DNA from: Gammaproteobacteria bacterium
Lineage (GTDB): Bacteria > Pseudomonadota > Gammaproteobacteria > Acidiferrobacterales > UBA6901
Direction: 5' to 3'
Length of the DNA: 64,000 bases
NCBI GenBank assembly: GCA_028068195.1
Contig: JAPTTX010000100.1
Span: 35,838-99,837, forward strand
Shown here in pieces: positions 1,067 through 31,242 of the stretch (position 1 is its first letter; each line of letters begins with the position of its first letter). The position numbers were made by a program, and so were the translations under genes. Under the pieces are notes generated by a model. That model was not told the DNA's origin. It did no database searches and saw only the letters and a program-made list of their open reading frames with translations.

Positions 1067-2233
1067 ATGTTAACCGCGGCAACCGTGCGCAGAACCTTCG
1101 CCTGGAATACGCTCGTCGCGCTGTGTCTGCTGAGCGCCAAGGCTGCTGCCACTCCCGTCATCACAGGAGTGAACGCTACCGGCGGCCTGGTCAACGGCGC
1201 ATCCCTCACGATCACGGGGTCGGGATTCGGGACCAAATCACCCGCCGCCCCCTACCTGTGGGCCGACTTCGGGCAGGGGAATCTCAATCCCTCGCCGCTC
1301 GGACAGGATCAAGCCTGGTCGAACATCCAGAACATGGTCTACAGCGCCACGGGAGGTCCGGACAACGGCCCGTACGCTGAGGGCGTGCCGCAATCCGGAT
1401 CCGGCGTTTACTGGACCCTGATGCTTTCGCCTCCCTACAATGCCGCGACAGGCACCTGGGGCTTCACCTGGAACGACCTCAGCGCAAGATATTACGTCTT
1501 CCGGAAAATGAAGAAGAATTTCACAACCGCGAACACGATCAACTGGAAGGACTTCCGCATGGGCGTGCAGGGCGCGGGCCTAGACTGGGCCTGGGGACCC
1601 TGGAACGGCAACGTCGTCGTGGAGAACCTGCCGACCGGAGTAAACGGGGAGTCCAACGCGTATGCCGCCACCTATGTCAACGGCGCCACTACCGGCACGC
1701 AGACAAGCCCGTCGCTCCTTGAGGGGCCGATCAACCAGTGGTTTTCGGACGAAATCGCCTACCAGGTCAATTCATGCTACACCTGCTCAAACGGGCAGAT
1801 GCAGTGGATTGTCAACGGGGCGCTGGTCGGACAGGAACCCATCAACATGGGCTGGACCAACTGGACGCTCCAGTTGCGGGACTCGGCATCCAACGAGAAC
1901 ATCACCACCATGTCCATCCAGGGGGTTGCGGACAATGACGCCGCGTTTCCGACCACCAACACGTTTGGCCTGGCCGACATCTATGTCGACAATACCTGGG
2001 CGCGCGTGATGATCGGAAATGCTCCGACTTGGGGCCAGAGCTCGATCCACGACATCGAGATCCCCACCGCCTGGTCCGATAATTCCATCACGGTGGTCCT
2101 GCACAACAATTCGCTCCCGAGCATCGGCGGCGCATACCTCTACGTCTTCGATGCGAACGGAAACGTCAACCAGAACGGCTATCCGCTCTGTTCGAACTGT
2201 CCGCAGACTATCAGCAGTCTGAAGGCCCAGTAA
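1067..2233 (+). CDS. Secreted IPT/TIG-domain protein with a central jelly-roll-like region; candidate glycan-binding protein or glycanase
   Basis: The ATG at 1067 is preceded by GAGGA. There is a signal peptide (LLSAKAAA|TP) and an N-terminal IPT/TIG-like segment PVITGVNATGG...LTITGSGFG. The middle is Trp/Asn/Gly-rich and ends ...DIYVDN. A second Ig-like segment sits at the C-terminus (IEIPTAWSDNSITVVLHNN...YLYVFDANG). An enzymatic role is inference only. Confidence 0.6.
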   Translation: MLTAATVRRTFAWNTLVALCLLSAKAAATPVITGVNATGGLVNGASLTITGSGFGTKSPAAPYLWADFGQGNLNPSPLGQDQAWSNIQNMVYSATGGPDNGPYAEGVPQSGSGVYWTLMLSPPYNAATGTWGFTWNDLSARYYVFRKMKKNFTTANTINWKDFRMGVQGAGLDWAWGPWNGNVVVENLPTGVNGESNAYAATYVNGATTGTQTSPSLLEGPINQWFSDEIAYQVNSCYTCSNGQMQWIVNGALVGQEPINMGWTNWTLQLRDSASNENITTMSIQGVADNDAAFPTTNTFGLADIYVDNTWARVMIGNAPTWGQSSIHDIEIPTAWSDNSITVVLHNNSLPSIGGAYLYVFDANGNVNQNGYPLCSNCPQTISSLKAQ

Positions 2234-3263
2234 CCCAGCGGCCCCAGTTTTTCGCGCGCCGCACCAGCCGCTTGGCCAGACGAACACAGTCTGCCGCTGT
2301 AGCGACGGGCAAGCCGCAGGCCCACGGAGACCAGGCGCCCAGCAGCCTTAGTACCGATGCCGCGAAGGAATGGCTCCGGGCCCATTCGAGAGCGGCATCG
2401 GCATCCTTGCGATACCGCCGTGCGGTCATGGTGTAAGGCGAAAGATCGCAGTACAGCCGTTCCAGCCGCGCCCTAAATCCGCTGTTTTTGGCAGCCCAGA
2501 TATTCCCCCAAGGTTTGGTAACTTGGCTGTGAATAAAAGGGCACATGCCCTTGACAAGGTGCGTCATGCGCTCGCGCACCGTGTACCCGTAAGGGCCGAA
2601 AAACTGGATGACTCCGGCACCGCGGTATAGAAACTGCACCGGAATCTTGGCGAACCGGGTGGTGCATAGGAGAGCCGTCAGGGCGTCCTGGTCCCCGTAC
2701 ATGTATGCCGGTCTCCGGTCCCACGGAAGGCGCTGCGCCTCCAGATATCGCGGGTCCTGCAGGCGCTCACGCCAGACTTCGAGCAGCTCCCGATGTTGCG
2801 CGGTGACCCGGACTACTCCGGTGTTTGCCGTAAAGGGGAGAGTTCTTCCGACATCGAAGCCCCACTGCCTTGCGCGCCAGGCGTTGCGGTCGTCGTGCCC
2901 TCCGTACAATGCCTCCTCGCACAGCACGATCACTTCGGGGTCCAGACCGATCAGGTTGCGCACGCCCGGCGCCGACACGATAATATCGGAATCGATCCAT
3001 ACGACTTCCTCATAACCCCTGTCCAGCATCGTCAGCAGGGCCTGCGGTTTCACGTTATAGCCGCGCAGACCTTCCAGGCGCTGGATGTTCAATATGACTC
3101 CCGGCCAGCTCTCGATCCAGCTTCTCAGCCGATCATCATCTTTGGCAAACGGGCAAAATATCTCGACCCGGGCATCGGGCATCTGGCGCTTGAGCGATGC
3201 TACGAGCAGTCGCAACGGTTCCTGCTCGGATACCCGATCCTCGGCAATGCAAAATGCCTGCAT
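2211..3263 (-). CDS. GT-A fold glycosyltransferase, GT8-like
   Basis: ORF 2211..3323. The ATG at 3263 is preceded by GGGAGGAGAA. GT8-like motifs are present: VVWIDSDIIV (DxD), NTGVVRV, GDQDALTALL, FIHSQVTKPW. The 3' end overlaps the convergent gene by 23 nt. Confidence 0.65.
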   Translation of the reverse strand: MQAFCIAEDRVSEQEPLRLLVASLKRQMPDARVEIFCPFAKDDDRLRSWIESWPGVILNIQRLEGLRGYNVKPQALLTMLDRGYEEVVWIDSDIIVSAPGVRNLIGLDPEVIVLCEEALYGGHDDRNAWRARQWGFDVGRTLPFTANTGVVRVTAQHRELLEVWRERLQDPRYLEAQRLPWDRRPAYMYGDQDALTALLCTTRFAKIPVQFLYRGAGVIQFFGPYGYTVRERMTHLVKGMCPFIHSQVTKPWGNIWAAKNSGFRARLERLYCDLSPYTMTARRYRKDADAALEWARSHSFAASVLRLLGAWSPWACGLPVATAADCVRLAKRLVRRAKNWGRWVTGPSDC

Positions 3264-3401
3264 TTCTCCTCCCACTGACCGTTGCAGTCCAGTACCCGGC
3301 GTGACACTTGTCTGCGCCCGCATCCGTTGCCCCGGGAATTGGACACCCGGATCGCCCGCTCACCCCAGCCGGCCGGTCCCCTGGCAGCCACGAAGCCGGT
3401 A

Positions 3402-3681: not shown

Positions 3682-4755
3682 CTAGCCATCCGACCTTCCA
3701 TCGACGTAGGCGCATGTGCCCTGCAGAATGTCCCTGGCCAGCCGCTCCACCCCGCCGAGCGAAAGGGCATAATCCTGCCCTCTCCTGGCGAGCCCTTCGC
3801 GGTACTCAGGATCGCTCCATAATCTCCAGATAGCCTGATGCATTGCCGCCGGATCCTCTGCCGGTACGATTTCCGCCTCCGCTCCCGTCAGCACTCCCCG
3901 GGTCGACACACCTTCCGTGATCACCACCGGCTTGCCGATCGCCATGGCTTCGAGGCTCGCGCTGATACCGGCTGCCTGGATCGCCTGCTTCTGTATTGGA
4001 ATTACGACCACGCGCGCGTTCGCGATGATCTGATTCCAGGAATTCCGGTCGAAGTCATGTCTGATGACCTGCACGTTGGATGGCAACCTTGCTTCTTCCA
4101 GATCGGTATTGTGGAATACCGCAACACCTTTGCCAGGCAGCATGATCTTCGCCGGCACCTTCATCCTGCCCACCGCCTCAACGAATGTCCGGTAATCCCG
4201 CAGGCTCGCCCCGCACGCAAGCACGTATCCTTCATCCCTCGACACATACTTGAGCCTGTCGTGGAAGTTGTTTGCCTTGAATGGGATGTAGACGAACTTG
4301 GCGGCATCAATCCCGTAGTACTTCTGGTATCCGCTGGTATCCTTGTGGACGCAGAAGAACCGATCGACGCCCGTAAAGAGCGCCTGCTTGATCCTGCTCT
4401 TACAGATGCCTGTCAGTCCCACGGGACGCTGCAGCAACGCATCAAAAAAGATGATCGCTGTCTTGCGGCGCAGGAGCCACTTCGCTGCAAACGCCACAAT
4501 GGCCTCGTCTATATCCGGATTGAATGCGATGAACGCGTCATACCGCTTCAGTCCTTTCAGAACGCGTATGGCTTGGGCCACGCGCCCCCATTTTCCAGAC
4601 GGCGGCATCGGAAGGATGTCCAGCTCAATCTCGTCTGGAAAACAGTTGACGAGTTTCGCATTCGACAGGAACCTGCGTTTACGTCCGGATTTCAGCGCCG
4701 AACATGCCTGTTCCTCGTCTCCGCGCCTCTGCACAGCTGCATTCTCTGGCAACAC
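3682..4755 (-). CDS. GT-B fold glycosyltransferase (GT1/GT4-like)
   Basis: The C-terminal domain carries ...AGISASLEAMAIGKPVVITEGVSTRG..., typical of GT4. A GTG start lies 16 nt after the upstream stop and has the SD GAGGGAGAG. Confidence 0.7.
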   Translation of the reverse strand: MLPENAAVQRRGDEEQACSALKSGRKRRFLSNAKLVNCFPDEIELDILPMPPSGKWGRVAQAIRVLKGLKRYDAFIAFNPDIDEAIVAFAAKWLLRRKTAIIFFDALLQRPVGLTGICKSRIKQALFTGVDRFFCVHKDTSGYQKYYGIDAAKFVYIPFKANNFHDRLKYVSRDEGYVLACGASLRDYRTFVEAVGRMKVPAKIMLPGKGVAVFHNTDLEEARLPSNVQVIRHDFDRNSWNQIIANARVVVIPIQKQAIQAAGISASLEAMAIGKPVVITEGVSTRGVLTGAEAEIVPAEDPAAMHQAIWRLWSDPEYREGLARRGQDYALSLGGVERLARDILQGTCAYVDGRSDG

Positions 4756-4771
4756 GCCGGTTCGCTCTCCC

Positions 4772-6148
4772 TCAGGCCGGAAGATTGGAAATGGAGAACC
4801 TGTATTTGCCCGAATTCTCTGACGGTATCATGTCTCGGAACTCGGTCTGTATTTCCATCTCCGCCCCGAGAAATTCCCGTACCCTGTCCTGCAGGACCTC
4901 CATGGTCCGAGACGACCAGGCTTCTCCTCTTACCAGATTTATGACGACTTTCCGCGCCTCGTTTTGCACGAACTGTATCTGTCGTATTCCCGGGAGATTC
5001 GTGATCACATACGTTGCCACCACGATGCCGGACACCTTCTTTCCGTCGGTCCTGGCGAGAAAGTCCGTTACCCTGCCGCCCGAGAGCTGCAAAAGAGGAA
5101 GTCCGCGACCGCAGGCGCAGCTGTGACTCCTGATCCGCCCCACGTCCCGAATGCGGTAGCGTATCAGGGGCATGGCGAAATTCCCGAGGTCGGTGATCAC
5201 GATCTCCCCGTCCTCCTCCTGGCACGACGACCCGCCGGCAACCACTTCGACAAGAAGATTCTCGGCATTGATATGCATACCGTCGTGCCGGTCGCATTCC
5301 GAGGCGATTACCGCGAATTCACGGCAGCCGTACCGGTTGTACACCCGGCAACCCAGGGTGTCTTCGATAAGCTTTCGGTTCTCATCGGTCAGGACCTCGG
5401 CGGAACATACCGCAGTCGTCGGCGATACGTCATGGATTCCTTTCTCGCGCACGTATCGCGCAAAAAGCCCCAGCGTATTCGCATAGGCGAGCAGCACCTT
5501 TGGACGATATTTCGCAAGCTGGTCAGCGAATCTGGCCATTGCGTCATCGTCCAGCAGCGCCGCATCCAGCGTCAGTCGCCGGTCAAGAATCCAGTCTCTC
5601 ACCCTGTCTCTCAGCTTGCCGGTGCTCTGGGTGTCGCGCGGAGCCCCCCACAGGATCGCGGCCCGGTCACCGATATCCCAGCCGGCCCAGCGGTTGTGCC
5701 GCAGGGTGGCGGCGGCCCGGGTGTCCAGCCGGTCATTGTCGTAATAGAAAACCATCGGGCTGCCAGTGGATCCTCCCGTCATGTCCTTTATCAATCCCTC
5801 TGGCCGGTACTGCTCCGAAACAAACCGGTCCCTGTGTTCCTGAATCTCCTCCTTGGTGACGGTAGGCACCCGGTTGATATCCTCGGGCGTACGCAGATCC
5901 TCCGGAACGAGTCCTGCCCGGCGATAGGCCTCGCGGTAATAGCTGCAGGTCATATGCGCATGGGCAACGATCTTTCTGAAGCGCACCCACTGCTGCTCCA
6001 GCAGCCGCTCCCGCGGCCAGAACTGGCTCTTTTCCAGATCCGCGAGATACCGCAGACGGTGGCTCCCGTTCTTGAGCTCCCACGCCGGATAGAGCAGATG
6101 CTTGATCAGGATGCTTGCCGCATCCCTGTGGCTCCCGGAACTGGTCAT
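4772..6148 (-). CDS. Adenylate-forming enzyme, phenylacetate-CoA ligase / CapK / F390-synthetase-like (paralog 1)
   Basis: Motif MTGGSTGSP is present, with a PaaK/CapK-like N-terminus (YYREAYRRAGL...) and a C-terminal CACGRGLPLL segment. I prefer the ATG at 6148 (SD GGGAGGG, 6 nt spacing) over the ORF start at 6181. Confidence 0.8.
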   Translation of the reverse strand: MTSSGSHRDAASILIKHLLYPAWELKNGSHRLRYLADLEKSQFWPRERLLEQQWVRFRKIVAHAHMTCSYYREAYRRAGLVPEDLRTPEDINRVPTVTKEEIQEHRDRFVSEQYRPEGLIKDMTGGSTGSPMVFYYDNDRLDTRAAATLRHNRWAGWDIGDRAAILWGAPRDTQSTGKLRDRVRDWILDRRLTLDAALLDDDAMARFADQLAKYRPKVLLAYANTLGLFARYVREKGIHDVSPTTAVCSAEVLTDENRKLIEDTLGCRVYNRYGCREFAVIASECDRHDGMHINAENLLVEVVAGGSSCQEEDGEIVITDLGNFAMPLIRYRIRDVGRIRSHSCACGRGLPLLQLSGGRVTDFLARTDGKKVSGIVVATYVITNLPGIRQIQFVQNEARKVVINLVRGEAWSSRTMEVLQDRVREFLGAEMEIQTEFRDMIPSENSGKYRFSISNLPA

Positions 6149-6612
6149 TCTGCACCCTCCCACCTCTGATTGCGCCGACATGCCGCGGACTGCTCACGCC
6201 GACAGGCCCGCCCTTCCTGAACCGCTGCAGGAGCGGTCACTTCCGGAACGGCGGCGATTCCCGATCCGTCGGCGCCCACCCGCGGCGTCCGGAATTCCGC
6301 CCGACGCACCGGCTGCGCCATGGCTTGCCATATCGCCTCGCACGCGGTCGATCGAGGCTGGCCCGGCCGATCCGTCGTTTGACCGCGATCTTCAGGTCCT
6401 TGGACTTAAAAAGGGGCGATCGTACCACTTGCTCGGACCGCCGCATGCACGCACCGCCAAGACGACTCTGCTCCAATCCGGCGCACGCTGGTCCGGCCCG
6501 ATCCACGGAATGTTCCCATTGGAAATGTCGTCGAACCCGTTACGGCCCTTGCAACCGGTACGGATTCCGCTCCCGGCAACGGCCGACGTTCCTGCGTCCG
6601 GCCGGATTCTCG

Positions 6613-7605
6613 TCAGATGCGGATCTGCCTTCCGAACAGGCGCTTGCGGACCATATAGAGGAGGCGCGGCCGGTTTCGATTGATCGTAGCTATTATTTCC
6701 CGCGTCCTCGGTACCATCACCGTCCTCTCCCCGAATGCCCGCCGCAGGCCGCCGACGCCATCAGCCACCCCTTTCGCCCAGTAGCGCAGGTAGCCGTCAC
6801 GCACTGAATACACGAACATTGCCGCCAGTCCGCGCGCGAGGACTCTCAGGCCGCTCCACAGGGGGTAATTCCGGGCGACGAGCCAGAACAGATTCCTCGT
6901 GTCGAAGTAATAGTTTCGCCATGGCGTGCGCCCCTCGGATGCAGGCGCATGCCTGACCACGATCTGTGGCTGATAGACCACCTCGTAGCCGGCGTTCATG
7001 ATCCTGATGGCCAGATCCGGCCCCTCGTGACTGATAAAGAAGGATCCGGGGTACAGCCCCGACAGGTCCAGCGTGGCGCGCCTGAAAGCGACCGCCCCCT
7101 CTGTGATCTCGTCCGTGACGAAGACTTCATTCTCGAAGCGCTCCACCGCATAGTGGTGGACCCAGTTGATCACTTCGCCTGAGGCGGCATCGACCACCTT
7201 GAAGCAGATGCCTCCGAGACGCGGCTGTTCCTCGAACATATTTCTGATCAGAACGATGTCTTCGTCTCCGATTCCCACGACATCATCGTCCAGCGTGATC
7301 ACGTACCGGCCACGACACATGCGCAGACCGACGTTGCGACCCTCGATCCCGAGGTTGGCTCCTGGCCGGACATGCTGGACCCATGGAAAATCCGCCGCCA
7401 TCATGGCGGGCGTCGCCTCGTCAGATCCGTTGTCCACGACCACTGTCTCCACGGACGTGTCGGCAAGCGATACACGCAGGTGATCGAGAAGATTGCGAAG
7501 CGCCTGTGGCCTGTTATAGGTCAGAATTACAATCGAGATGACCGGCGTCGCGTCATCCTCCCCTGCCTGGGCCACTGATGCCATTCCCGCCTCGCTCTTG
7601 TCCAT
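6613..7605 (-). CDS. Family 2 glycosyltransferase
   Basis: VISIVILTYNRP...VVVDNGSDE...ITLDDDV (the DxD region of a GT2). An alternative start at 7584 has a better SD (GAGGCGGGA). Confidence 0.8.
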   Translation of the reverse strand: MDKSEAGMASVAQAGEDDATPVISIVILTYNRPQALRNLLDHLRVSLADTSVETVVVDNGSDEATPAMMAADFPWVQHVRPGANLGIEGRNVGLRMCRGRYVITLDDDVVGIGDEDIVLIRNMFEEQPRLGGICFKVVDAASGEVINWVHHYAVERFENEVFVTDEITEGAVAFRRATLDLSGLYPGSFFISHEGPDLAIRIMNAGYEVVYQPQIVVRHAPASEGRTPWRNYYFDTRNLFWLVARNYPLWSGLRVLARGLAAMFVYSVRDGYLRYWAKGVADGVGGLRRAFGERTVMVPRTREIIATINRNRPRLLYMVRKRLFGRQIRI

Positions 7606-15440: not shown

Positions 15441-15478
15441 TGCGTTGCCCACTTCGTTACCCGCTGTGTAACCGGACC

Positions 15479-23331: not shown

Positions 23332-24272
23332 GTCGTTTCGCCGTCCGCTGACGCGGACAGCCCGCGCTTTGCACGCCGCAAACCCAGCGCATCTCGTAAC
23401 ATTTGGCGCCAGTCAAGCGGAGGAAGGTCGGGCTTGTTGTTGAAGACGAACCCGAGAAACTTCTTGCGGTCGATCACCTTCACCGCGTTCACTGCCTGCG
23501 CTTCGGTCACCTTGCCGTAGGGCAACACGACCGCCGCAAAATCGCACAATTCCGCAAGAATATGCGCGTCGGCGGATTCCGTCAGAGGTGGCGCATCGAT
23601 GATGATGAATCGATCAGAAAAACGCTCCGCCAGGTCGTGCAGCATAGCCTTCATGCCCGCCGAGCTGAAATGCTCGGCCGGTCCGTCCCCGCCCCTTCCA
23701 AGCGGTATGACCCTCAGGCGCGGGATGCCGACCGGATGGATGATCTTCGACAGGCCGATTTCGGGGTTTTCAAGATAGTCCGCAAGCCCGAGCGGATCCT
23801 GTCCGCGCACAAGGCGGTAAACCCACGGATGGTGCACGCTGCAATCTACCAGCAGTGCGGTCTTGCTGGGATCACGCGCGAACGCCGCCGCCAGGTTGGT
23901 CGCGACATAGCTGCTCCCGCATTCCCTGGACAGACCGCTCACCATGACACAACAGCTGCGTCCGTTGGTGTGCTGGACGATCTTCGTCCGCAGCTCCCGG
24001 AACGCCTTCACGACGCTGTCTTCTTCCCTCAGCCCGTGAATGATGCCCAGATTCGCGAGGCTCTGGATCGTCAACGGGTCTACTTCGTTCATGCGGGCAA
24101 TGTCCCCGCGCGCCTGCTGCAACTCACCGCGATGCGCGACCACCGATATGGGCTGCCCGTCGCTGCCTTGACGGCTCTCCCGCGACAGGGATTCCCCCGG
24201 CACCATGCCTTCCTGAGGCTTGCGCTGCGCCTTTTGCAGCGCCTGCTCGATCTTGCTCCTGATCTTGCTCAT
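23328..24272 (-). CDS. BY-kinase-like P-loop ATPase (MinD/ParA fold) with a degenerate Walker A
   Basis: The ATG at 24272 overlaps the PCP stop (ATGA). The architecture is BY-kinase-like: VMVSGLSRECGSSYVATNLA (Walker A position), LLVDCSVHHP (A') and FIIIDAPPL (B). The Walker A reads G-S-S where G-K-S/T is expected. Confidence 0.7.
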   Translation of the reverse strand: MSKIRSKIEQALQKAQRKPQEGMVPGESLSRESRQGSDGQPISVVAHRGELQQARGDIARMNEVDPLTIQSLANLGIIHGLREEDSVVKAFRELRTKIVQHTNGRSCCVMVSGLSRECGSSYVATNLAAAFARDPSKTALLVDCSVHHPWVYRLVRGQDPLGLADYLENPEIGLSKIIHPVGIPRLRVIPLGRGGDGPAEHFSSAGMKAMLHDLAERFSDRFIIIDAPPLTESADAHILAELCDFAAVVLPYGKVTEAQAVNAVKVIDRKKFLGFVFNNKPDLPPLDWRQMLRDALGLRRAKRGLSASADGETT

Positions 24273-25813
24273 CGGTAGAGCACCAGCAGAAGATGAAGCA
24301 CTCCAGCGAGACCCACCACCACAATCGTAAACGCGATCACCCAGACGTAGCGAATAAGCTCGCGCCGCACCGACACCAGGGCTACCGGAGTCCATGCATG
24401 GGGAACCGTCGCCAGCACCGGTAGCTTGGTCTGCGCCCCGAAAACTTCCGGAACACGCACCCTGGGCCGCAGCTGCAGGCCCGCATATAGCAGACCGAGG
24501 GGCAACGCAATGCCCAGACTGATGCCGCCAAGCATGAACTGGATGAACCGGGGTCCGGTCGGCTCCAGTGGCAGGGTGGCCGGATTCTGGATCCTGAATG
24601 TCGGACCCTCTTTCTTCAGGTTCAAATTCATCGAGATACGGGCCTCCTCGCGGCGGCGTACCAGACTCTGATATATGCCGTGGTAAACGTTGTAATCACG
24701 CGTCAGCTCCGCCAGGGTTGCATCGCTTCCCTGAATCCGCTTGCCCTGGGCCTCCTCTGCCGCGAACTCCTGTTTCGTATCGGCTAAGCGGACCTTAAGC
24801 ATGTCCACCCGGGTCTGGGCCTTGGACAGATTGTCCCGGAGACGGACATACACCGGATTTGCCGTCGCGATCCCGCCGCTTGTCCGCGCACCCTGATTAC
24901 TGCGCGTGGCAGCCTCCCGCTGTTCCGACGCGAGCGCCTCCTTGAGATCCCGGATCTGGTTCCTGATGCTGACGATATCCGGATACTTGTCGTGATAGCT
25001 CAGGCGCAGCGTGGCCAGGCGCTGCTCCAGTTCTGCGATGCGCTGCAGATAAAGCCCTTCGCGCGACATCGTCACCACCGAGCTTGCCTCGCCGGAAAGC
25101 TGCTGCTCGAGCGAACGCTCAGCCGCCTTGGCCTGCTGCAGTTCCTGCGCGGTCTTCTCGATCCGGTCCTGCAGCACCTGAAGGCGGCTGGTCACGTCGC
25201 CTCCTGTTCCCGGGGCCGCGTCGATGTTCGCCGCGCGGAAGGCCTGCAGCCGGCGGTCTGCGTCGCTCAGCTTCTTGTGATAGTACTTGGCCTCGGCATC
25301 GATGAAATCGAATGCCTGCTGGCTCTCCTCGATCTTGGATGCAGCGCTCTCCGTGATGAACAGCTTCGCAAGATCGCGGGTGACCAGGTAGGCACGCTGC
25401 GCGTTTTCGTCGCGGTATTGAATCTGGATCAGATTGTGCCCCACGTCGCTAACCTTGGTTTGGGCACGCAGTCCATCGGCGATACGTTGCTCCGCGAGCG
25501 GGCTCGTCCCATGCCTGAGCAAGCCCACATCCTTCATGACGGCATGGATGGTTTTATGGCTGAATATTAGCTGCTGTGCGATCCTTGCCCGATCGGTAAT
25601 GCTGGTCGGCACCGCAGTGCCCTGCATCAGCGGTTGAATGATGCTTCTGTCCTGGACCAAAATACTCGTCTTTGCGACGTAGTACGCCGGCCACAGGAGT
25701 CCCACCAGGACGACCAGGAGGGCGGTGCCGGCGAACATGCCGACCACGAGCTTGCGATGCAGGAAGGCCTCACGGGCAAGGAGTCGCACAAGCTGTTCGA
25801 GAGACAAGTTCAT
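24269..25813 (-). CDS. Polysaccharide chain-length determinant (PCP/Wzz-like)
   Basis: An N-terminal TM (LVVGMFAGTALLVVLVGLLW) is followed by a long coiled-coil periplasmic region and a C-terminal TM (VWVIAFTIVVVGLAGVLHLLLV). It sits immediately upstream of the kinase-like gene. Confidence 0.8.
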   Translation of the reverse strand: MNLSLEQLVRLLAREAFLHRKLVVGMFAGTALLVVLVGLLWPAYYVAKTSILVQDRSIIQPLMQGTAVPTSITDRARIAQQLIFSHKTIHAVMKDVGLLRHGTSPLAEQRIADGLRAQTKVSDVGHNLIQIQYRDENAQRAYLVTRDLAKLFITESAASKIEESQQAFDFIDAEAKYYHKKLSDADRRLQAFRAANIDAAPGTGGDVTSRLQVLQDRIEKTAQELQQAKAAERSLEQQLSGEASSVVTMSREGLYLQRIAELEQRLATLRLSYHDKYPDIVSIRNQIRDLKEALASEQREAATRSNQGARTSGGIATANPVYVRLRDNLSKAQTRVDMLKVRLADTKQEFAAEEAQGKRIQGSDATLAELTRDYNVYHGIYQSLVRRREEARISMNLNLKKEGPTFRIQNPATLPLEPTGPRFIQFMLGGISLGIALPLGLLYAGLQLRPRVRVPEVFGAQTKLPVLATVPHAWTPVALVSVRRELIRYVWVIAFTIVVVGLAGVLHLLLVLYR

Positions 25814-25862: not shown

Positions 25863-26495
25863 CTAGAACAGGCGCTCCGGCACAGTAATCACGTCCCCTG
25901 GCTGGAGCAGCATGTTGCTTTGTAGATCGCCCCTTTTCAGGATGTCACCCAGATCTATGTGGAAGGTCTCGACCTTTTCGCCGTCGCGGCGGTAGAGCTT
26001 CGTTCCGTCGGGCGACGCAAAGCTGTTGGTCCCTCCGGCTTCGAGAACCGCATCAAGCACAGTCATGCCGGGCCGGTACGGAATGGTGATGGGCTTGTTG
26101 ACTGCACCCGTCACACGGATACGTGACAGAAACTCGTTGCTACGCAGTTTGACGACGATAACCGTAACGTTCGGATCGCGAATATAAGCGGAGAGGTCTG
26201 TGCGGATTTCCCTTGCCACGGCCATCGGCGTCTTGCCGCCCGCCTGGACATCGCCCACAAGCGGCACCGTGATCTTGCCGTCGGGTCTTACTGGTTCGCG
26301 CACGGACAAGTCGGGGTTTTTCCAGACATCTATCTGCAGGACGTCGTCGACGCCGATCCTGTAGGTACCCTGGACGGACGTGATCACCGGTCTCTCAAAT
26401 CCTGCCGGACTTGCCGCAACCGACGGCGAATGCGTCGCGCAGGACGCGAGTCCGACCGCGAACACCAGAACCAGCAACCAGCGCATTGCGTTCAT
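25863..26495 (-). CDS. Short OPX-family polysaccharide export lipoprotein (Poly_export + one SLBB domain)
   Basis: Lipoprotein signal (...VGLAS|C). YRIGVDDVLQIDVWKNPDLS...PDGKITVPLVGDVQAGG matches the PES/Poly_export motif. The C-terminal SLBB-like part ends PGDVITVPERLF. The protein is only about 210 aa. The ATG at 26495 has SD AAGAGG. Confidence 0.85.
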   Translation of the reverse strand: MNAMRWLLVLVFAVGLASCATHSPSVAASPAGFERPVITSVQGTYRIGVDDVLQIDVWKNPDLSVREPVRPDGKITVPLVGDVQAGGKTPMAVAREIRTDLSAYIRDPNVTVIVVKLRSNEFLSRIRVTGAVNKPITIPYRPGMTVLDAVLEAGGTNSFASPDGTKLYRRDGEKVETFHIDLGDILKRGDLQSNMLLQPGDVITVPERLF

Positions 26496-27055
26496 CACAG
26501 GCCTCTTATGGCTGAGTGTTCCACTCCGCGACTGCAGCGGCGAGCGGTCTCGCCCTGCCGGGCATGCACATGCCCCACAACCGAGACGGCTTCCGCACGC
26601 AGACAGAAGTAGCGCCGGACGAAGAGACCGGGATCTTCAGAGACATAAGAGGAGCGGGAACGGCAACACCGTATACCATCCCTGCCGCCACGAGCGGCTG
26701 GCAGCGGTGACCGGCAGCAGAAGCGCCGTCGTCGCACGCAGTGGCGTGCTTACCGCCACGATCGCCTCCCCAGGCAACCTTGGAACCACCCCTCTTTCGC
26801 CCTGTATTCGGGTCTCTGTGTCATAGCTTCTTGTTCTTGCCTTTCCAAGGCGAATTTTCCCATTTATTTAAATACATTTTAACAGCGGGGACCGTTCAGG
26901 CGCAACTTGATGCGATCCCGGAAAATTGCTGTTGAAATCCCAACATGTAGGGCGCCCGCAGCCGAATTTCGGTCGTATTACCATGTTGTGGAGCGCACCC
27001 AGGCGTTGCGCTACGCACGGACCCGATATCGGTGAATACCTCGCGCGTGGCCCGA

Positions 27056-28282
27056 TCATTGACCATCCTCTGGTGAGGACCGGGACTCCGGCTGGGACCG
27101 GGATCCGACGGCACCAGGCTTCGGCACCGGGCGATGCACCAGGCCTTTCATGCCGACCCAGACCCTCTTGGCGGCCGCATGCAGCGCCGGATGGCGGCGC
27201 AGAGTCTCCCTGCTTCTATCCACAAATGTGCCGGCTGCATATCGCGCCATCGCAACGGGCGTCCGGTTGTACAGCCGCACACGGAGCAGCGGCTGGGCGG
27301 TTTGCGTCCACTCCTCCTTCCAAGCATCGCGCGCGCCCAGAAGATCGTAGGTCCGATGTGATCCCTTATGGAAGAGCCCACGCAGCACGCTCTTGCGCAA
27401 TACCCGGCCCGGAGAATTCTTTGCGTAGGCAGGATTGTAACCCGTCTTCAGGACATTGAACGTCTCCCGGTACGGGAGACAGTAGTCAAAAGCAATCCTT
27501 GCTCCGTTGAGGCTGAGGAAATAAAGCCGGAAATTGTCGCGCGCACCCATTGCCCGCGCCAGATCCAGATAGAAGCTCGCCGCAGCGGAAGTCCTGTTTA
27601 TTGCAGAACCTGCCGCGCCCTTCCAGCTCGATTCTTCGATCTCGAAGGCTTCGATCACGGCCTGTTCCGCTCCTGCGCCGCCCGCGATTTCGATCAGGTC
27701 GACTGATCCCTCCTTTTGCATCCGCCGCTCGAAATAATCCCAGTTCTTTCTGACTTTGCCGTTCCGCGCGCCCAGGTAATCCTCCCATGTCCCGGCGATT
27801 TCCACATACGGACTTTCCATCTGAATCTCATCACGCATTCCGAACGCAACCTTTCCGCACGCTCGCTTGATGAACGGAATGCTGTCCGAACTGGCGGGCA
27901 GATGGGTCAGCTCCATCAAATCCCAGCCGCCATGCCGCGAGAGATGCCCCAGCATCGCCTCCAAGACATCGCTGCCACCTTCTTTCGGGAGAACAGGGCT
28001 GTACTTGCAGGTATGGGCGTTGGACATCGACCGCAGAACCGACTGCGTCCAGGGACCGATCCGGCGCCGTTCACGTAGAAGCGGCATGATCCCTCGGATG
28101 GCGTCCGCTTCCCGCGCGATGACGACACACAGGGAACCGGCTGGCGCAAAATTCCTGGCCCAGGCATAAAACCACTCGTAACTGAGAAAGATCGAATCGA
28201 AACCCGACGATTCGACCGCCCTGTTCCAGGCTGCCTGCAATGGGGCAAGCTGTTCCAGCTCCCGTATGACTTCGATTTCCAC
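27056..28282 (-). CDS. FemAB-like / BioF2-like acetyltransferase-fold protein, EPS-locus type
   Basis: 408 aa, with W..AV..S..DSIFLSYEWF..W at the N-terminus and YFLSLNGARIAFDYCL...LKTGYNP in the C-terminal GNAT-like half. Its position beside glycosyltransferases matches FemAB-related proteins of PEP-CTERM loci. GTG start. Confidence 0.65.
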   Translation of the reverse strand: MEIEVIRELEQLAPLQAAWNRAVESSGFDSIFLSYEWFYAWARNFAPAGSLCVVIAREADAIRGIMPLLRERRRIGPWTQSVLRSMSNAHTCKYSPVLPKEGGSDVLEAMLGHLSRHGGWDLMELTHLPASSDSIPFIKRACGKVAFGMRDEIQMESPYVEIAGTWEDYLGARNGKVRKNWDYFERRMQKEGSVDLIEIAGGAGAEQAVIEAFEIEESSWKGAAGSAINRTSAAASFYLDLARAMGARDNFRLYFLSLNGARIAFDYCLPYRETFNVLKTGYNPAYAKNSPGRVLRKSVLRGLFHKGSHRTYDLLGARDAWKEEWTQTAQPLLRVRLYNRTPVAMARYAAGTFVDRSRETLRRHPALHAAAKRVWVGMKGLVHRPVPKPGAVGSRSQPESRSSPEDGQ

Positions 28283-28317
28283 GTCCGACCCCGCCCCGCG
28301 CTACGCGGATACCGCGT

Positions 28318-29553
28318 TCAGCCCGCCGACCGCCGGTTCTGGGCAGCTCTCTTGTGATCCAGGGCTGCCTGGTAGGACAGGATGGTCTTCGCCGCCACCC
28401 GGTCCCAGCTAAGGTGCGATTCGGCGCGTTCACGACCTTTCTGGACGATCTCGAGACGTAACGCCTCATCTGAAAGCAGCTTCAGGATTGCGTCCGCCAA
28501 TGATCCGGGATCGTTTTCTGGAATCCATACCGCGGCATCACCCAGGTGATCCGGCAGCCCCGCGCGGCGCGTAGCAATGACGGCCGCGCCGTTCGCCAGC
28601 GCATTGGCGGCCGCCAATCCGGCGAAACTGCCGGTATAAGGCAGAACACAAAGGAGCGCTTTTCCGTACGCCTCCGAGGTGGCCTGCGCATCTATCTGGT
28701 TGCGCCATTGCACGAGATCCTCAATTCCATTCTGCGCCGCGAGCTGCAATCCGTACTCCGGAGTCCTGTCGCCATAGTGGCCATGGATCACGAGACCCGG
28801 AGTCTTCTCACCCAATCGCGCCTTCACCATGGCCATGGCTTTGAAGAGCGAGTCGACTCCTTTACCGACATGGAGCCGGTGCGCCCCGTAGAATATGATG
28901 GTCTGCCTCGGGCCGTCGGGCATGGGCCGGACTTCCACCCCATGCTCCACCACGTCGATCCGTCCGCCGTCCACGCCCAATCCGATCAGACGCTCCTTCA
29001 TGTCCGCGGCATGAACGATAATGCGGTCGGCGCGGTTGTAGGCCAGGTTGCTTTGCGGGTGCTCGGTTTGATGAGGATCCAGTTCGTGGACGGTGACGAC
29101 CCGCGCCGCAACGGCTGGAAGGCGAAGCCAGTTGAACACCGCCACGGACCCATACGCATTGAGCGTTTGCTGGAAATGCACGACATCCGCATCGCCGTTG
29201 AAACTCAGATAGCGCTTCGCTCTTTGCAAGTAAATCAGCTGGCGGGCCTGCGTACGTAACCAATATTTGAGCGGGTTGTCCGACTTGAAATACCGGACAT
29301 GCGGAAACTCAAAATATTCGCATCGCCGATCATGGAACCGTCTCTTGACTTCTTCCGGGTGTCCGCAGCCGCAGTTGGAGGCAATTACGCCGACTTCCGA
29401 CCCCAGCCGCCGCTCCAGGGCCTGGCGGAGCCCGTCGGTATACTCGCCGTAGGAAGTGGCAAACCAGCAGGAAATGATCTTTATTTTCAATGGTTGAATC
29501 CCGTTAGTGATTTCTTCGGAGCACTGGCGCACCACGTGCGCTTCGCGTTCCAT
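28318..29553 (-). CDS. GT-B fold glycosyltransferase (GT4-like)
   Basis: 411 aa. The C-terminal half carries ...CVLPYTGSFAGLAAANALANGAAVIATRRAGLPDHLGDAA... in the nucleotide-sugar-binding region. Confidence 0.75.
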   Translation of the reverse strand: MEREAHVVRQCSEEITNGIQPLKIKIISCWFATSYGEYTDGLRQALERRLGSEVGVIASNCGCGHPEEVKRRFHDRRCEYFEFPHVRYFKSDNPLKYWLRTQARQLIYLQRAKRYLSFNGDADVVHFQQTLNAYGSVAVFNWLRLPAVAARVVTVHELDPHQTEHPQSNLAYNRADRIIVHAADMKERLIGLGVDGGRIDVVEHGVEVRPMPDGPRQTIIFYGAHRLHVGKGVDSLFKAMAMVKARLGEKTPGLVIHGHYGDRTPEYGLQLAAQNGIEDLVQWRNQIDAQATSEAYGKALLCVLPYTGSFAGLAAANALANGAAVIATRRAGLPDHLGDAAVWIPENDPGSLADAILKLLSDEALRLEIVQKGRERAESHLSWDRVAAKTILSYQAALDHKRAAQNRRSAG

Positions 29554-29844
29554 CCCGGTGCCGGATGATCAGGCGCCGAACCCCCTGCAAGGTTTTGCAA
29601 ACTGCAACCTTACCTCACCGTTGAAAATACCTCGCACACTCCAGCTCGACGCGAACATCTGCTGCCAGCCTCCCTCAGCCGGCATAGCCGCATTGTGCCC
29701 TGGACTTCCCGGCCGGCGACACAGTCCGGCCGCTGCAACATAACCCTGGCCATATTCCTTCTCGGCCGCGCACCGAGCCGGATCATCGTCACGACCGAAC
29801 TTGACCACCGTGTCCGCGCGGCCACGTGAGCGCCCCGCCTACCG

Positions 29845-31242
29845 CTACCTCGATCCCTTCCCGAAGACGATGACCTGCACGGTCTGCAGGATAACCACGA
29901 TATCCAGAAACAGGCTGTGATTCTTCACATAGTACAGGTCATACTGCAGCTTTTCGATTGCATCCTCCACCGATGCTCCGTAGGAGCATCGTATCTGCGC
30001 CCATCCCGTGATTCCCGGCTTGACATTATGGCGGCACATGAAGAAGGGGATCTGTCGCGAAAGCTGTTCGACGAAATATGGCCTTTCCGGACGCGGTCCG
30101 ACAAAACTCATGTCCCCTTTTAGCACATTGAATATTTGCGGAAGCTCGTCGATGCGCAGCTTGCGTATGACCCGCCCGACGCGCGTAATGCGATCATCGT
30201 TCTCCATTGCCCAGCGCGGCTTTCCGTCCTTTTCGGCATCTGCGCGCATGCTGCGGAACTTCAGGACATTAAACGGCACGCCCCCCTGCCCCACACGCTC
30301 CTGCCGGTACAGCACGGGCCCCCGGCTATCGAGCTTGATGAGCACGGCCGTCAAGAGCATTACGGGCAGCGATATCGCCAGGAGTACGCCGCTCACCAAA
30401 ATATCAAAGGTGCGCTTGATCGAATCCGTGAACGGCCCGCGGGGAAATCCGTCGGAGAATATCATCCAGCTCGGATTCAGCGACTGAAGATATACATGTC
30501 CGGTCTCGCGCTCGAAAAACGAGGGCAGATCTATGACGTCGATGCCGTTGAGCTTGCACATAAGCACATCGTCGATCGGAAGTCCGCCGCCGCGGCGGTC
30601 CCGGACGCCAACGACAATTTCGTCAATCTCGTGCTTCTTCGCGATCGCGCACAGGCTACCCTCCTCGGCAAGGACCTTGTCTTTGTTCACGAAGTGATGT
30701 CCGCCACCCAGCGGTAGGTATCCGACCACGCGGAATCCCTGCTGGCCGTTTCCGGAACGCTCGAGGGCATCTATTTTTGCCGCACGCGTGCCGGTACCAA
30801 GCACCAGGATGCGCCGCTTGTTGTTGCCAATCTCGCCCAGCGAGAGATAGACGGACCGCACCGCCACAATGCTGGCGAATGCAATAATATAGGCAATACC
30901 GAATGCGACCCGGCCGACAAACAGCTTCGGCACCGCATAGAAGATCAGGCTCATCGCGGCGAGCCCGACGACAAAACTCACGGCAATCCGCCCGTAGTGC
31001 CACACCCGCGGCTGGTACTCGCGCTGGTAGAGGCCCATGGCGACCATGATGGCCAGCATGGCTACCGCAAAAGTGAACGCCCTCGGAAGTACCATTCCCA
31101 GACCGGCGCGCGGAATTCCACCCTCGTCCTTCCAGAACCAGGCCGCCACGCCGGCGTAAATCGACAGGAAGAGCACGCCAGTCTCCATGATACCGAGCAC
31201 CAGCAACGACGCCGGCATGTAATGCTTGAAAACTCGAATCAT
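29845..31242 (-). CDS. Polyprenyl-phosphate sugar-phosphate transferase (priming enzyme), PEP-CTERM-locus type
   Basis: I prefer the Met at 31242, which gives the N-terminus MIRVFKHYMP that I associate with the PEP-CTERM-associated sugar transferase family. There are 4-5 N-terminal TMs. The C-terminal bacterial sugar-transferase domain carries KRTFDILVSG...LKFRSM...DELPQIFNVLKGDMSFVGPRPERP. Confidence 0.9.
   Translation of the reverse strand: MIRVFKHYMPASLLVLGIMETGVLFLSIYAGVAAWFWKDEGGIPRAGLGMVLPRAFTFAVAMLAIMVAMGLYQREYQPRVWHYGRIAVSFVVGLAAMSLIFYAVPKLFVGRVAFGIAYIIAFASIVAVRSVYLSLGEIGNNKRRILVLGTGTRAAKIDALERSGNGQQGFRVVGYLPLGGGHHFVNKDKVLAEEGSLCAIAKKHEIDEIVVGVRDRRGGGLPIDDVLMCKLNGIDVIDLPSFFERETGHVYLQSLNPSWMIFSDGFPRGPFTDSIKRTFDILVSGVLLAISLPVMLLTAVLIKLDSRGPVLYRQERVGQGGVPFNVLKFRSMRADAEKDGKPRWAMENDDRITRVGRVIRKLRIDELPQIFNVLKGDMSFVGPRPERPYFVEQLSRQIPFFMCRHNVKPGITGWAQIRCSYGASVEDAIEKLQYDLYYVKNHSLFLDIVVILQTVQVIVFGKGSR

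Follow-up and report, generated by a model that had tools for sequence, protein, structure and literature searches.

A divergent exopolysaccharide locus of apparent XrtA/PEP-CTERM class with no exosortase gene found in its surroundings

Within a window of 64,000 nucleotides (the whole stretch of DNA analysed; the contig of the region is given as DAHWTB010000127.1 of GCA_027351345.1, from an uncultured Acidiferrobacterales-like gammaproteobacterium), the original prediction had recognised an exopolysaccharide (EPS) locus of the XrtA/PEP-CTERM type without its expected partners. The missing genes were proposed to lie beyond the left edge or elsewhere in the genome, or the locus to work without an exosortase.

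The locus comprises a minus-strand row of Wzx/Wzy-type EPS genes from 2211 to 31338 (originally delimited as 2211-31242). As predicted, it adjoins core genes at about 31.3 kb, where ygfZ, ftsB and eno were confirmed.

31786..32943, plus strand, ygfZ, core gene and right-hand border of the locus (TIGR03317, 101 bits against a cutoff of 49)

Housekeeping genes (ygfZ, ftsB, eno, kdsA, tilS, accA, lpxB, bamA, rseP, tsf, map, glnD) fill the right half. On the left, the window edge cuts the EPS locus, and more locus genes lie left of base 1 on the same contig; the window covers about two thirds of an EPS region of ~45 kb. The left border, taken from two related lineages (one 93% identical, the other with 68% amino acid identity) and not from the window's own strain, is formed by an epimerase, a UDP-sugar dehydrogenase, an epimerase, sdhCDAB, nadB and rpoE.

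The assignment to the XrtA/PEP-CTERM class was borne out by four system-specific families exceeding their NCBIfam cutoffs, namely TIGR03013, TIGR03027, TIGR03007 and TIGR03006. The export and assembly genes of the row are the following.

29845..31242, minus strand, priming polyprenyl-phosphate sugar-phosphate transferase, first gene of the row (TIGR03013, 554 bits against a cutoff of 393; Pfam Bac_transf, 233 bits)
25863..26498, minus strand, short OPX lipoprotein of 211 aa, N-terminal part of Wza only (TIGR03027, 202 bits against 180; lipobox LASC)
24269..25813, minus strand, polysaccharide co-polymerase (PCP) / chain length determinant (TIGR03007, 340 bits against 279)
23328..24395, minus strand, BY-kinase-like protein (TIGR03018, 157 bits, under the cutoff of 231)
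21976..23331, minus strand, putative beta-barrel protein of the outer membrane and presumed partner to the short OPX, ~450 aa (weak matches to BBP2_2, 16.7 bits, and EpsL, 19 bits)
14166..15452, minus strand, Wzy-type polymerase / O-antigen-ligase-like membrane protein (Pfam Wzy_C, 47.6 bits against 31.7; 10 TM segments)
11193..12752, minus strand, Wzx-type flippase with 12-13 TM segments (Pfam Polysacc_synt_3, 24.5 bits against 23; TM scan)

The transcription order is short OPX, PCP, kinase-like protein and outer-membrane protein (OMP), which corrects the predicted order of PCP, kinase, OPX and OMP. This block, with the priming transferase upstream, is common to relatives in which an ATPase gene directly follows the OMP gene, and it is also present in the canonical locus of Candidatus Tenderia electrophaga; in the Vibrio locus the order is rearranged. 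In an alignment with the Tenderia, Vibrio and Sulfurifustis variabilis homologues, the BY-kinase-like protein has a degenerate P-loop (ECGSS instead of GEGKT), with the Walker-A lysine gone, and is devoid of the C-terminal tyrosine cluster; it is probably a pseudokinase partner of the PCP. The putative OMP is located where the TIGR03016 OMP stands in canonical loci. It shares 24-28% identity with its positional orthologues (E down to 1e-51), one of which, in a Sulfurifustaceae MAG (L055), carries Pfam BBP2_2, and the hhalign probability against TIGR03016-type OMPs was only 56%. An OPX protein without outer-membrane-spanning domain and a separate barrel are likewise found in the composite translocons of Myxococcus xanthus (PMC9601211, PMC9603273), whereas in the window the barrel is only weakly recognisable and the OPX-barrel pairing is putative.

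The sugar-building and modifying genes of the row were assigned as follows.

28318..29553, minus strand, GT4 glycosyltransferase (Pfam Glyco_trans_1_4, Glycos_transf_1, Glyco_transf_4)
27056..28282, minus strand, FemAB-like GNAT (Pfam Acetyltransf_6, PF13480, 75 bits, sole match)
20641..21669, minus strand, XrtA-system polysaccharide deacetylase (TIGR03006, 388 bits against 276)
19293..20450, minus strand, membrane-anchored GT2 glycosyltransferase (Pfam Glycos_transf_2, 89 bits; 4 TM segments; likely start MAESIFW)
18172..19458, minus strand, GT4 glycosyltransferase, distantly stp2-like (TIGR03088, 152 bits against 409)
16642..17703, minus strand, second polysaccharide deacetylase, generic Polysacc_deac_1 (PF01522, 92.5 bits)
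15479..16618, minus strand, GT4 glycosyltransferase (TIGR03088, 135 bits, under cutoff; EpsE-like matches)
12749..13921, minus strand, GT4 glycosyltransferase (several GT4 family matches, none reaching cutoff)
9748..11130, minus strand, CapK/PaaK-like adenylate-forming ligase (NF045666, 151 bits, under cutoff; CapK_C on the called gene)
7715..9613, minus strand, AsnB-type glutamine amidotransferase, 632 aa (TIGR01536, 467 bits against 267)
6613..7605, minus strand, GT2 glycosyltransferase (Pfam Glycos_transf_2 on the called gene)
4772..6181, minus strand, second CapK/PaaK-like ligase (NF045666, 144 bits; CapK_C)
3682..4755, minus strand, GT4-like glycosyltransferase (Pfam Glyco_trans_1_4, 40 bits)
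2211..3323, minus strand, last gene of the row, weak GT8-like match (PF01501, 16 bits, under cutoff; called with 350 aa on the public contigs)

All sequence motifs quoted in the original prediction could be located. MIRVFKHY begins at 31242, where the priming transferase probably has its true start; the TIGR03006 deacetylase carries DVEDYF (21501) and HPWEIDP (20847), and the 632-aa amidotransferase starts with (GTG)CGICG at 9613. The hallmark proteins named there fared unevenly against the family cutoffs. The four families given above pass, whereas the kinase-like protein, the amidotransferase (TIGR03108, 618 bits, cutoff 817) and the O-antigen-ligase-like protein (TIGR03097, just 56 bits, cutoff 188) remain below, and the FemAB-like protein has no TIGR03019 match at E<=0.1.

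Judged by family membership, the pathway would be Wzx/Wzy-dependent. The TIGR03013 transferase would prime the lipid carrier, on which the GT4 and GT2 enzymes would then build a repeat unit, modified by the two deacetylases, the AsnB-type amidotransferase, the two CapK-like ligases and FemAB-like GNATs. Wzx may flip the unit and the Wzy-like protein polymerise it, and the PCP with its degenerate kinase-like partner would pass the polymer to the short OPX lipoprotein and the beta-barrel OMP.

In the window itself, TM, C-terminus and homology searches for the expected partners were all empty, as the original prediction had it: no exosortase, EpsI, secretion ATPase, Prs regulator or PEP-CTERM tail was found, and there is neither an unassigned multi-TM ORF nor an ORF with a P-x-P / hydrophobic / basic C-terminus. 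A six-frame search of the window with two bona fide XrtA-EpsI queries (phmmer, two-sequence HMM, tblastn) gave nothing under E=0.26. PrsK, PrsR and PrsT had been expected inside the locus without warrant, as they are listed as unlinked from EpsH (Haft 2006, Table 1; PMC1569441).

Beyond the left edge, a plus-strand arm of the locus runs out of the window.

1067..2233, plus strand, secreted protein of 388 aa with signal peptide and without sorting tail, part of the arm running left past the window (translation; weak TIG match only)
306..830, plus strand, lipoprotein of 174 aa (lipobox LAGC; weak fn3 match, 20 bits, under cutoff)

Two of the missing partners were indeed detected within 6.1 kb of base 1, both on the same contig and on the strand opposite to the EPS row. 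The first, 4.7-6.1 kb left of base 1, is a GspA-like ATPase (L002:2867-4249) fused to a Rieske-like domain, which matches TIGR03015 over its full length (1-267/269) with E=7e-90 and 301 bits against a cutoff of 324.5. The second, at 1.9-3.9 kb, is a secreted repeat protein of 661 aa (L002:5076-7061), whose C-terminus consists of AVPLPAS, a hydrophobic helix and RRRRR, ending in AVPLPASVWLLASGMAFLMAMPRRRRR. This tail matches the whole VPLPA-CTERM model (TIGR03370), placed exactly at the C-terminal end, with 20.8 bits (cutoff 25.35), while Pfam PEP-CTERM (PF07589) gives no match. The protein is predicted to be a sorting-signal substrate with a PEP-CTERM-like (VPLPA-type) tail, of which one example was seen. 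The VPLPA motif, helix and Arg cluster are shared with the VPLPA-CTERM/XrtD system of Rhodobacterales (NCBI names XrtD the VPLPA-CTERM-specific exosortase); the tail described here differs in scoring under the model cutoff, in its gammaproteobacterial host and in its neighbouring genes of XrtA type. An XrtD-like gene was not found in the region searched.

An XrtA/EpsI pair just upstream of position 1, named in the original prediction as what would make the locus an ordinary complete one, is absent up to sdh/nadB/rpoE. Between this block and ygfZ (~45 kb), neither TM scans nor the Vibrio and Tenderia XrtA-EpsI queries revealed an exosortase-family gene or EpsI. The Tenderia query itself scores 361 bits on TIGR03109 (cutoff 208), and the Vibrio query, run against a 7.3 Gb database, picks up planctomycete exosortases as well as XrtB, XrtD and XrtV. 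That the gene was lost by misassembly or binning is hardly credible: the source records are metagenome assemblies, and none of the three MAGs of the lineage was found among the GTDB species representatives scanned, but three independent public contigs match the window at 99.8-99.96% identity over the common stretch, the 93%-identical relative is collinear save for one IS insertion, and the same gap recurs within the order, in isolate genomes and in other MAGs.

For comparison, canonical XrtA loci were taken from Candidatus Tenderia electrophaga (CP013099; L057-59), a Vibrio alfacsensis plasmid (NZ_CP140104; L049) and Sphingomonas parapaucimobilis (NZ_CP155749; L063). The synteny comparison called for in the original prediction revealed, along with the core block, a common set of gene families: the TIGR03013 transferase, short OPX, chain-length determinant, kinase-type partner, OMP, GspA-like ATPase, TIGR03006 deacetylase, FemAB-like GNAT, GT4s and AsnB-type amidotransferase, in Tenderia a CapK-like ligase as well. 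The canonical loci differ in an XrtA-EpsI fusion between glycosyltransferase and amidotransferase, and every marker tested passes its cutoff. In the locus of the window, by contrast, the ATPase has moved to the other side and opposite strand with its Rieske-like fusion, the kinase partner is without Walker-A lysine and tyrosine tail, and the amidotransferase, ligase-like protein, FemAB-like protein and OMP are either scored under cutoff by the system-specific models or not matched by them. A generic Wzx/Wzy locus outside the XrtA class would account for TIGR03018, TIGR03108, TIGR03097 and TIGR03015 being sub-cutoff and for the lack of TIGR03019 and TIGR03016 matches. This reading is very unlikely and already disfavoured by the four families above curated cutoffs, the sub-cutoff proteins still having XrtA-system models as best match, the shared core block, and the adjoining ATPase and PEP-CTERM-like tail protein.

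The closest sequence relatives are EPS loci of Sulfurifustis variabilis (AP014936; L061) and of Sulfurifustaceae/Acidiferrobacterales MAGs (L004/L055, L030, L062), with 55-67% identity of priming transferase and ATPase. They share the OPX-PCP-kinase-like-OMP block, the sub-cutoff ATPase score (302 bits) and, in S. variabilis, the degenerate kinase; unlike in the window, the ATPase gene comes straight after that of the OMP and encodes no Rieske domain, and some loci contain XrtA-associated ligase, decarboxylase and hydrolase genes. XrtA/EpsI is missing from these clusters of related sulfur oxidisers too, and no exosortase was found in any Acidiferrobacterales locus examined, that of the window's organism included. 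Since the empty XrtA slot recurs (L055/L056, L062, L061), it is a trait of the lineage and nothing peculiar to the window. The locus is best read as a lineage-typical, divergent derivative of the XrtA/PEP-CTERM-associated EPS class, and its exosortase is either unlinked or lost.

The methanolan system of Methylobacillus sp. 12S, which is of XrtB type, bears on this choice. Its eps locus, also exosortase-associated, differs in containing EpsH and EpsI, and methanolan production is unaffected by EpsH disruption (PMC1569441). True loss, in which the lineage, perhaps Acidiferrobacterales generally, keeps the XrtA-type machinery as a plain Wzx/Wzy pathway and the tail is a simple C-terminal membrane anchor or relic, fits this independence and the slot empty in all loci of the order examined. 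The sub-cutoff or absent markers, many of them under cutoff in S. variabilis alike, and the degenerate kinase partner indicate a diverged system that could have lost XrtA dependence. The tail lies under both model cutoffs, and no sigma-54 type promoter was found upstream of its gene. However, the full tripartite tail is intact in two lineages 93% identical at the DNA level, which suggests selection, the Sulfurifustaceae MAG carries an 'exosortase A system-associated' ligase and decarboxylase above cutoffs, and the relatives were viewed across only ~20 kb around each locus. Loss is rather unlikely.

A different enzyme might also handle the sorting signal.

Outer edge of the region, periplasmic clan-CD (GPI8/legumain/caspase-fold) cysteine peptidase of 484 aa with a small 4-TM partner

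Cleavage or transfer by this pair instead of an exosortase is a far-fetched reading, for which the peptidase has an N-terminal signal peptide, a confident AF2 model (pLDDT 91.5) and, as top PDB match, PIGK, the catalytic subunit of human GPI transamidase (E=2e-6), followed by legumain, peptide asparaginyl ligase, metacaspases and caspases. His146 (GHG) and Cys193 (QC) are conserved without exception across 42 homologues, and the gene pair adjoins EPS genes in L046, L060, L050-52 and L053, in the last with a PF07589 protein 9 kb away. Yet the resemblance does not go beyond the fold (TM 0.3-0.56, 12% identity), GPI8 scores hardly better than caspases and metacaspases, EPS genes are absent in one context (L054), and proximity is the sole tie to the tail protein.

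In genomes with PEP-CTERM proteins an exosortase is almost invariably present, and 90%, not 100%, of EpsH genes are located near EPS genes (PMC1569441). The exosortase of this organism probably has its gene at another place in the genome and acts on the VPLPA-type tail, and EPS synthesis by the locus would proceed independently of it.

The 388-aa gene at window positions 1067-2233 was found on three public contigs, whose identity to the window is 99.8-99.96%. DAHWTB010000127.1 (GCA_027351345.1), at 178,790 bp the longest of the three, provides a locus (L002) that spans the left end of the window and the sequence to the left of it, with base 1 of the window being base 8935 of L002. The original prediction had suggested that the missing partners of the EPS genes might lie beyond the left edge. 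This applies to a putative secretion ATPase, 4.7-6.1 kb left of the window, and to a putative PEP-CTERM-type substrate, 1.9-3.9 kb left of it, whereas no exosortase is encoded there. The 64-kb window had thus cut a locus of ~45 kb, with two of the "missing" parts located just beyond its edge. The features of this left flank, together with their counterparts in a 93%-identical relative (L046) and a more distant lineage (L060), are as follows:

L002:1-1528, conserved pair, one a four-helix membrane protein of ~150 aa, the other a secreted protein of 484 aa (also L046:9556-11455 and L060:7497-9402)
L002:1528-2867, 1.3-kb gene-less stretch upstream of the ATPase gene
L002:2867-4249, plus strand, putative XrtA/PEP-CTERM system-associated ATPase (TIGR03015, below cutoff), 460 aa, fused to a Rieske-like domain (also L046:6825-8207 and L060:10001-11377)
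L002:5076-7061, plus strand, 661-aa protein with a signal peptide and a tripartite C-terminal tail (tail protein)
L002:7365-8459, plus strand, second weakly FemAB-like protein (TIGR03019, 25 bits)

The ATPase, which begins with MYLEHFKLREFPF, contains the P-loop GSGKT in intact form. Its match to TIGR03015 covers positions 1-267 of 269 (E=7e-90) and scores 301.1 bits, short of the cutoff of 324.5; the homologues in Sulfurifustis variabilis and Candidatus Tenderia electrophaga score 301.8 and 385 bits, respectively. Fusion to the Rieske-like domain at the C-terminus (54 bits to Pfam Rieske) occurs in only two of the 120 best protein clusters, that of the window's lineage and that of a single other lineage, which is 68% identical. 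The ligands read CxH...CxxD in both clusters, so that an Asp replaces the fourth ligand His.

The tail protein contains numerous repeats rich in Gly, Asn and Thr, and its C-terminus reads AVPLPASVWLLASGMAFLMAMPRRRRR. The VPLPA-CTERM model TIGR03370 is matched over all 25 positions at the very end of the protein, with a score of 20.8 bits that stays below the cutoff of 25.35 (E=2.8e-4), and the Pfam PEP-CTERM model PF07589 gave no match. The tripartite signal is retained in two diverged lineages. A scan of JGI metagenomes yielded no relatives of this protein, and in the literature searched the term "VPLPA-CTERM" occurs only in an unrelated paper. No convincing sigma-54 (-24/-12) site was detected upstream of the genes for the tail protein, the ATPase and the priming transferase, the best match upstream of the tail-protein gene covering 6 of 11 positions.

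Left of the ATPase gene, the 1.3-kb stretch holds no credible gene, the 361-aa ORF called there being junk-like in composition; it contains neither an Rfam match nor a sigma-54 site, and the equivalent stretch in L060 is just ~600 bp long. Rfam searches at gathering thresholds returned nothing in the window and L002. Beyond this stretch follow a 147-aa four-helix membrane protein and the 484-aa secreted protein. In L046, an IS with a DDE_3 transposase (L046:1084-2136, equivalent to about window position -27) lies between the FemAB-like and lipoprotein genes; the window's own strain lacks this insertion.

Within the window, the minus-strand genes run uninterrupted from 2211 to ~31.3 kb according to the ORF listing. 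Besides the genes discussed individually, the row encodes glycosyltransferases of families GT4 and GT2, another deacetylase, a flippase with 12 TM segments (Polysacc_synt_3), a protein with a Wzy_C domain and a pair of CapK/PaaK-like ligases. The following positions are referred to:

4772-6181 and 9748-11130, minus strand, paralogous CapK/PaaK-like adenylate-forming ligases
17703-18172, gap of ~470 bp between a GT4 gene and the second deacetylase gene
23328-24395, minus strand, BY-kinase-like partner of the polysaccharide co-polymerase (PCP)
29845-31338, minus strand, longest ORF of the priming transferase
33558-57517, conserved housekeeping cluster

All sequence motifs on which the assignment to the exosortase A type had been based are present, with MIRVFKHY at 31242 and DVEDYF and HPWEIDP in the deacetylase; the amidotransferase indeed has 632 aa and starts with (GTG)CGICG. 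Although the longest possible ORF of the priming transferase begins at 31338, its true start is likely 31242, which is indicated both by the family model and by the conserved MIRVFKHY. This also explains why the row had been delimited at that position. The supposed order with the PCP in front does not hold, as the operon order is outer-membrane export lipoprotein (OPX), PCP, kinase-like protein and outer membrane protein (OMP).

Scoring against the NCBIfam locus-specific models gave a divided picture. Above cutoff are the priming transferase (TIGR03013, 554 bits, cutoff 393), the OPX export protein (TIGR03027, 202 bits, cutoff 180), the chain-length determinant (TIGR03007, 340 bits, cutoff 279) and the deacetylase (TIGR03006, 388 bits, cutoff 276). 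The kinase-like protein (TIGR03018, 157 bits, cutoff 231), the amidotransferase (TIGR03108, 618 bits, cutoff 817) and the ligase-like membrane protein (TIGR03097, 56 bits, cutoff 188) find their best matches in models of the system and stay below cutoff. The FemAB-like protein of the window is a generic Acetyltransf_6 GNAT without a match to TIGR03019, and the OMP model TIGR03016 was not matched at E<=0.1.

The 165-aa ORF at 17652-18149, the only one in the gap between a GT4 gene and the second deacetylase gene, has no family match and an Arg/Pro/Gly-rich, junk-like translation that does not resemble a protein, for which reason the gap is probably non-coding. The two CapK/PaaK-like paralogues flank the amidotransferase and a GT2 gene, and a CapK-like gene is also located at the end of the Tenderia XrtA locus. 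Together with a UDP-sugar dehydrogenase at the far left of the region, the two ligases hint at amide-modified uronic acids in the polymer.

In the kinase-like protein, ECGSS takes the place of GEGKT, with loss of the Walker-A lysine, and the tail RGLSASADGETT contains no Tyr and hence no C-terminal tyrosine cluster. Neither of the two features that define a BY-kinase, a Walker A motif GxxxxGK(S/T) and a C-terminal tyrosine cluster, is found in this protein. Both are also lost in the S. variabilis homologue and kept in Tenderia and Vibrio. Judged from these residues, the partner of the PCP is probably a pseudokinase.

The OPX lipoprotein is 211 aa long, and its match to TIGR03027 (169 positions) extends to the end of the model. 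The beta-barrel is the weakest assignment in the EPS pathway: the OMP has weak BBP2_2 and EpsL matches, its orthologues carry PF10082, the profile-profile comparison (hhalign) to TIGR03016-type OMPs is weak (56% probability), and a single-sequence AF2 model was useless (pLDDT 29.7). The pairing of a short OPX, lacking a domain that spans the outer membrane, with a dedicated beta-barrel has been described as a composite OPX/beta-barrel translocon (PMC9601211, PMC9603273), to which the OPX lipoprotein and the separate putative barrel of the window may correspond.

With the priming transferase (Bac_transf, 233 bits), the Wzx flippase (Polysacc_synt_3, 24.5 against 23), the Wzy polymerase (Wzy_C, 47.6 against 31.7), the PCP and the OPX (TIGR03007 and TIGR03027, both above cutoff), the Wzx/Wzy set is present in full. 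By its families, the EPS part would constitute a complete Wzx/Wzy pathway. The priming transferase and the glycosyltransferases would build the units of the polymer, and two deacetylases, the amidotransferase, the two CapK-like ligases and GNATs would modify it; nucleotide-sugar genes are located at the far left of the region. Flipping and polymerisation would fall to the flippase and the polymerase, and export to the PCP with its probable pseudokinase and to the OPX lipoprotein with the putative beta-barrel. Since methanolan production remained intact upon disruption of EpsH (PMC1569441), EPS synthesis should not need an exosortase.

As predicted originally, the window itself encodes none of the expected partners. 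A hydropathy scan of all stop-to-stop ORFs left zero unassigned multi-TM ORFs, and no ORF has a C-terminus with P-x-P, hydrophobic and basic parts. The exosortase search was carried out with the annotated XrtA-EpsI fusion of a Vibrio alfacsensis plasmid and with that of Candidatus Tenderia electrophaga, the latter reaching 361 bits against TIGR03109 (cutoff 208) and 149 against TIGR02914. The Vibrio query is adequately sensitive: run by tblastn on a plasmid database of 7.3 Gb, it detects XrtB, XrtD, XrtV and exosortases of planctomycetes. Using phmmer, a two-sequence HMM and tblastn against the six frames of the window and every fetched locus, the best match had E=0.26. Exosortase A (TIGR03109, TIGR02602, PF09721) was found neither in the window nor in the 9 kb leftward of it nor in relatives out to sdh/rpoE, and EpsI (TIGR02914, PF11984) was not matched by the fusion queries in the window and the fetched loci. 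As tblastn with XrtA gave only noise at E<=50, no XrtA pseudogene remnant is present. With other proteins of the locus 29-53% identical, the XrtA queries are too distant to recover an exosortase of the lineage itself, and none was among the 120 best homology matches listed. The multi-TM ORFs in the relatives were rejected as exosortases, as they are flippases, Wzy-like proteins, ABC-2 permeases, ammonium/sulfate transporters and a diguanylate cyclase. The PrsK/PrsR/PrsT genes are absent from the window and also from the flanks; these regulator genes are normally unlinked to the locus (Haft 2006, PMC1569441).

On the right side, the locus abuts core genes as proposed, with ygfZ (plus strand), ftsB, eno and kdsA leading into a long housekeeping cluster. 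At 33558-57517, this comprises eno, kdsA, pyrG, tilS, accA, dnaE, rnhB, lpxB/A, fabZ, lpxD, bamA, rseP, dxr, cdsA, uppS, frr, pyrH, tsf and rpsB, of which several names were deduced solely from the size and order of the ORFs; the cluster further includes map, glnD and genes for an amino-acid permease and an amidase. The left side was followed via homologues of the 484-aa protein in related lineages. L046 (GCA_021810885.1, 93% nucleotide identity) is collinear with L002 apart from the one IS insertion and continues with an epimerase, a UDP-sugar dehydrogenase and an epimerase to sdhCDAB, sdhE, nadB and rpoE-rseA. L060, with a 68% identical ATPase, is laid out alike (sdh, then the 484-aa protein, a 149-aa protein and the ATPase-Rieske fusion). 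The alternative of an XrtA/EpsI pair immediately upstream of position 1 therefore did not materialize, there being none out to sdhCDAB/nadB/rpoE in the related lineages. Because L046 and L060 share the layout on the sdh side and the ygfZ side lies in the window, the ~45 kb region, whose outermost 10 kb were read in relatives, is flanked left and right by core genes and holds no recognizable exosortase-family gene.

A scan of the GTDB species genomes with the ATPase yielded relatives at 65% identity or less. The closest relatives, by ATPase and locus proteins (53-67% identity), belong to Sulfurifustaceae, Acidiferrobacteraceae, Sulfuricaulis, "Muproteobacteria" MAGs and Sulfurifustis variabilis. 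The slot that XrtA-EpsI occupies in canonical loci is empty in the Acidiferrobacterales loci examined. In Vibrio, Tenderia and Sphingomonas the order is deacetylase, FemAB, glycosyltransferase, XrtA-EpsI and amidotransferase, and in Tenderia each marker tested is above cutoff. By contrast, two Sulfurifustaceae MAGs and another Acidiferrobacterales MAG have deacetylase, FemAB, two glycosyltransferases and amidotransferase without any gene in between. In S. variabilis, whose genome is closed, the amidotransferase comes directly after the ATPase and precedes a ligase, an ACP, two hydrolases, a glycosyltransferase and a FemAB-like gene; the S. variabilis proteins likewise score under the system cutoffs, including the ATPase. 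One MAG (L055) has an "exosortase A system-associated" ligase and decarboxylase above cutoffs. No exosortase was detectable at these loci of S. variabilis and the MAGs. Annotators label such proteins "XrtA system ..." despite the lack of XrtA in the cluster, and no link of exosortases with Sulfurifustis, Sulfuricaulis or Acidiferrobacter was found in the literature. Because the slot is also empty in the Acidiferrobacterales relatives, and the sub-cutoff scores and the degenerate kinase recur in S. variabilis, the locus is read as a remodelled, divergent, lineage-typical variant of the XrtA-type system rather than a one-off deletion.

Genomes with PEP-CTERM tails almost invariably have an exosortase, and only about 90% of EpsH genes are located near EPS genes (PMC1569441). 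For these reasons, and since the tail is conserved, an exosortase is probably encoded elsewhere in the genome. A true loss, to which the empty slot throughout the examined Acidiferrobacterales loci would also correspond, is rather unlikely given the retained tail, and the remaining alternatives to an unlinked or lost exosortase have very little probability. Sphingomonas parapaucimobilis YK209 carries its TIGR03013 priming transferase (NZ_CP155750.1) on another replicon than the rest of the XrtA block, which is canonical (NZ_CP155749.1). This strain was rejected as a precedent for an unlinked XrtA, as XrtA remains in the canonical block, and shows no more than that XrtA systems can be split.

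The 484-aa protein at the outer edge has no Pfam or PDB match at the sequence level, and its family of 566 representatives (E<=1e-30) has no Pfam model. Its AF2 model is confident (pLDDT 91.5), with a long, helical C-terminal half. The best structure matches (Foldseek, E=2e-6 to 1e-3) are to PIGK, the catalytic subunit of the human GPI transamidase, followed by legumain, a peptide asparaginyl ligase, metacaspases and caspases. A dyad of His146 (GHG) and Cys193 (QC) is invariant in 42 homologues. With the caspase-hemoglobinase fold and the His...Cys dyad characteristic of clan CD, the modelled protein has a clan CD cysteine peptidase fold; due to the missing matches at the sequence level, it is not assigned to either C13 (legumain/GPI8) or C14 (caspases). 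The gene and its membrane partner adjoin EPS genes in five of six contexts examined. A clan-CD transamidase-like enzyme near an exosortase-less PEP-CTERM-type locus is suggestive. It is conceivable, albeit highly improbable, that the "XrtA" EPS systems of Acidiferrobacterales are exosortase-free and that the putative periplasmic peptidase with its small membrane partner processes the VPLPA-type tail: the likeness is confined to the fold, and nothing but proximity connects the 484-aa protein to the tail. If true, the pair would take over the role of the exosortase as a bacterial counterpart to the GPI transamidase of eukaryotes.

In a sulfur-oxidising gammaproteobacterial order, the exosortase-associated EPS system appears to be present in a remodelled form. 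It is distinguished by the lack of exosortase and EpsI in cis and by a partner protein hardly able to be a kinase; in the lineage of the window, the secretion ATPase is in addition fused to a domain resembling Rieske proteins. If XrtA is merely located elsewhere, the locus would be an ordinary one. If the absence is genome-wide, the EPS machinery would be separated from protein sorting, and the question would be what handles the PEP-CTERM-like tails.
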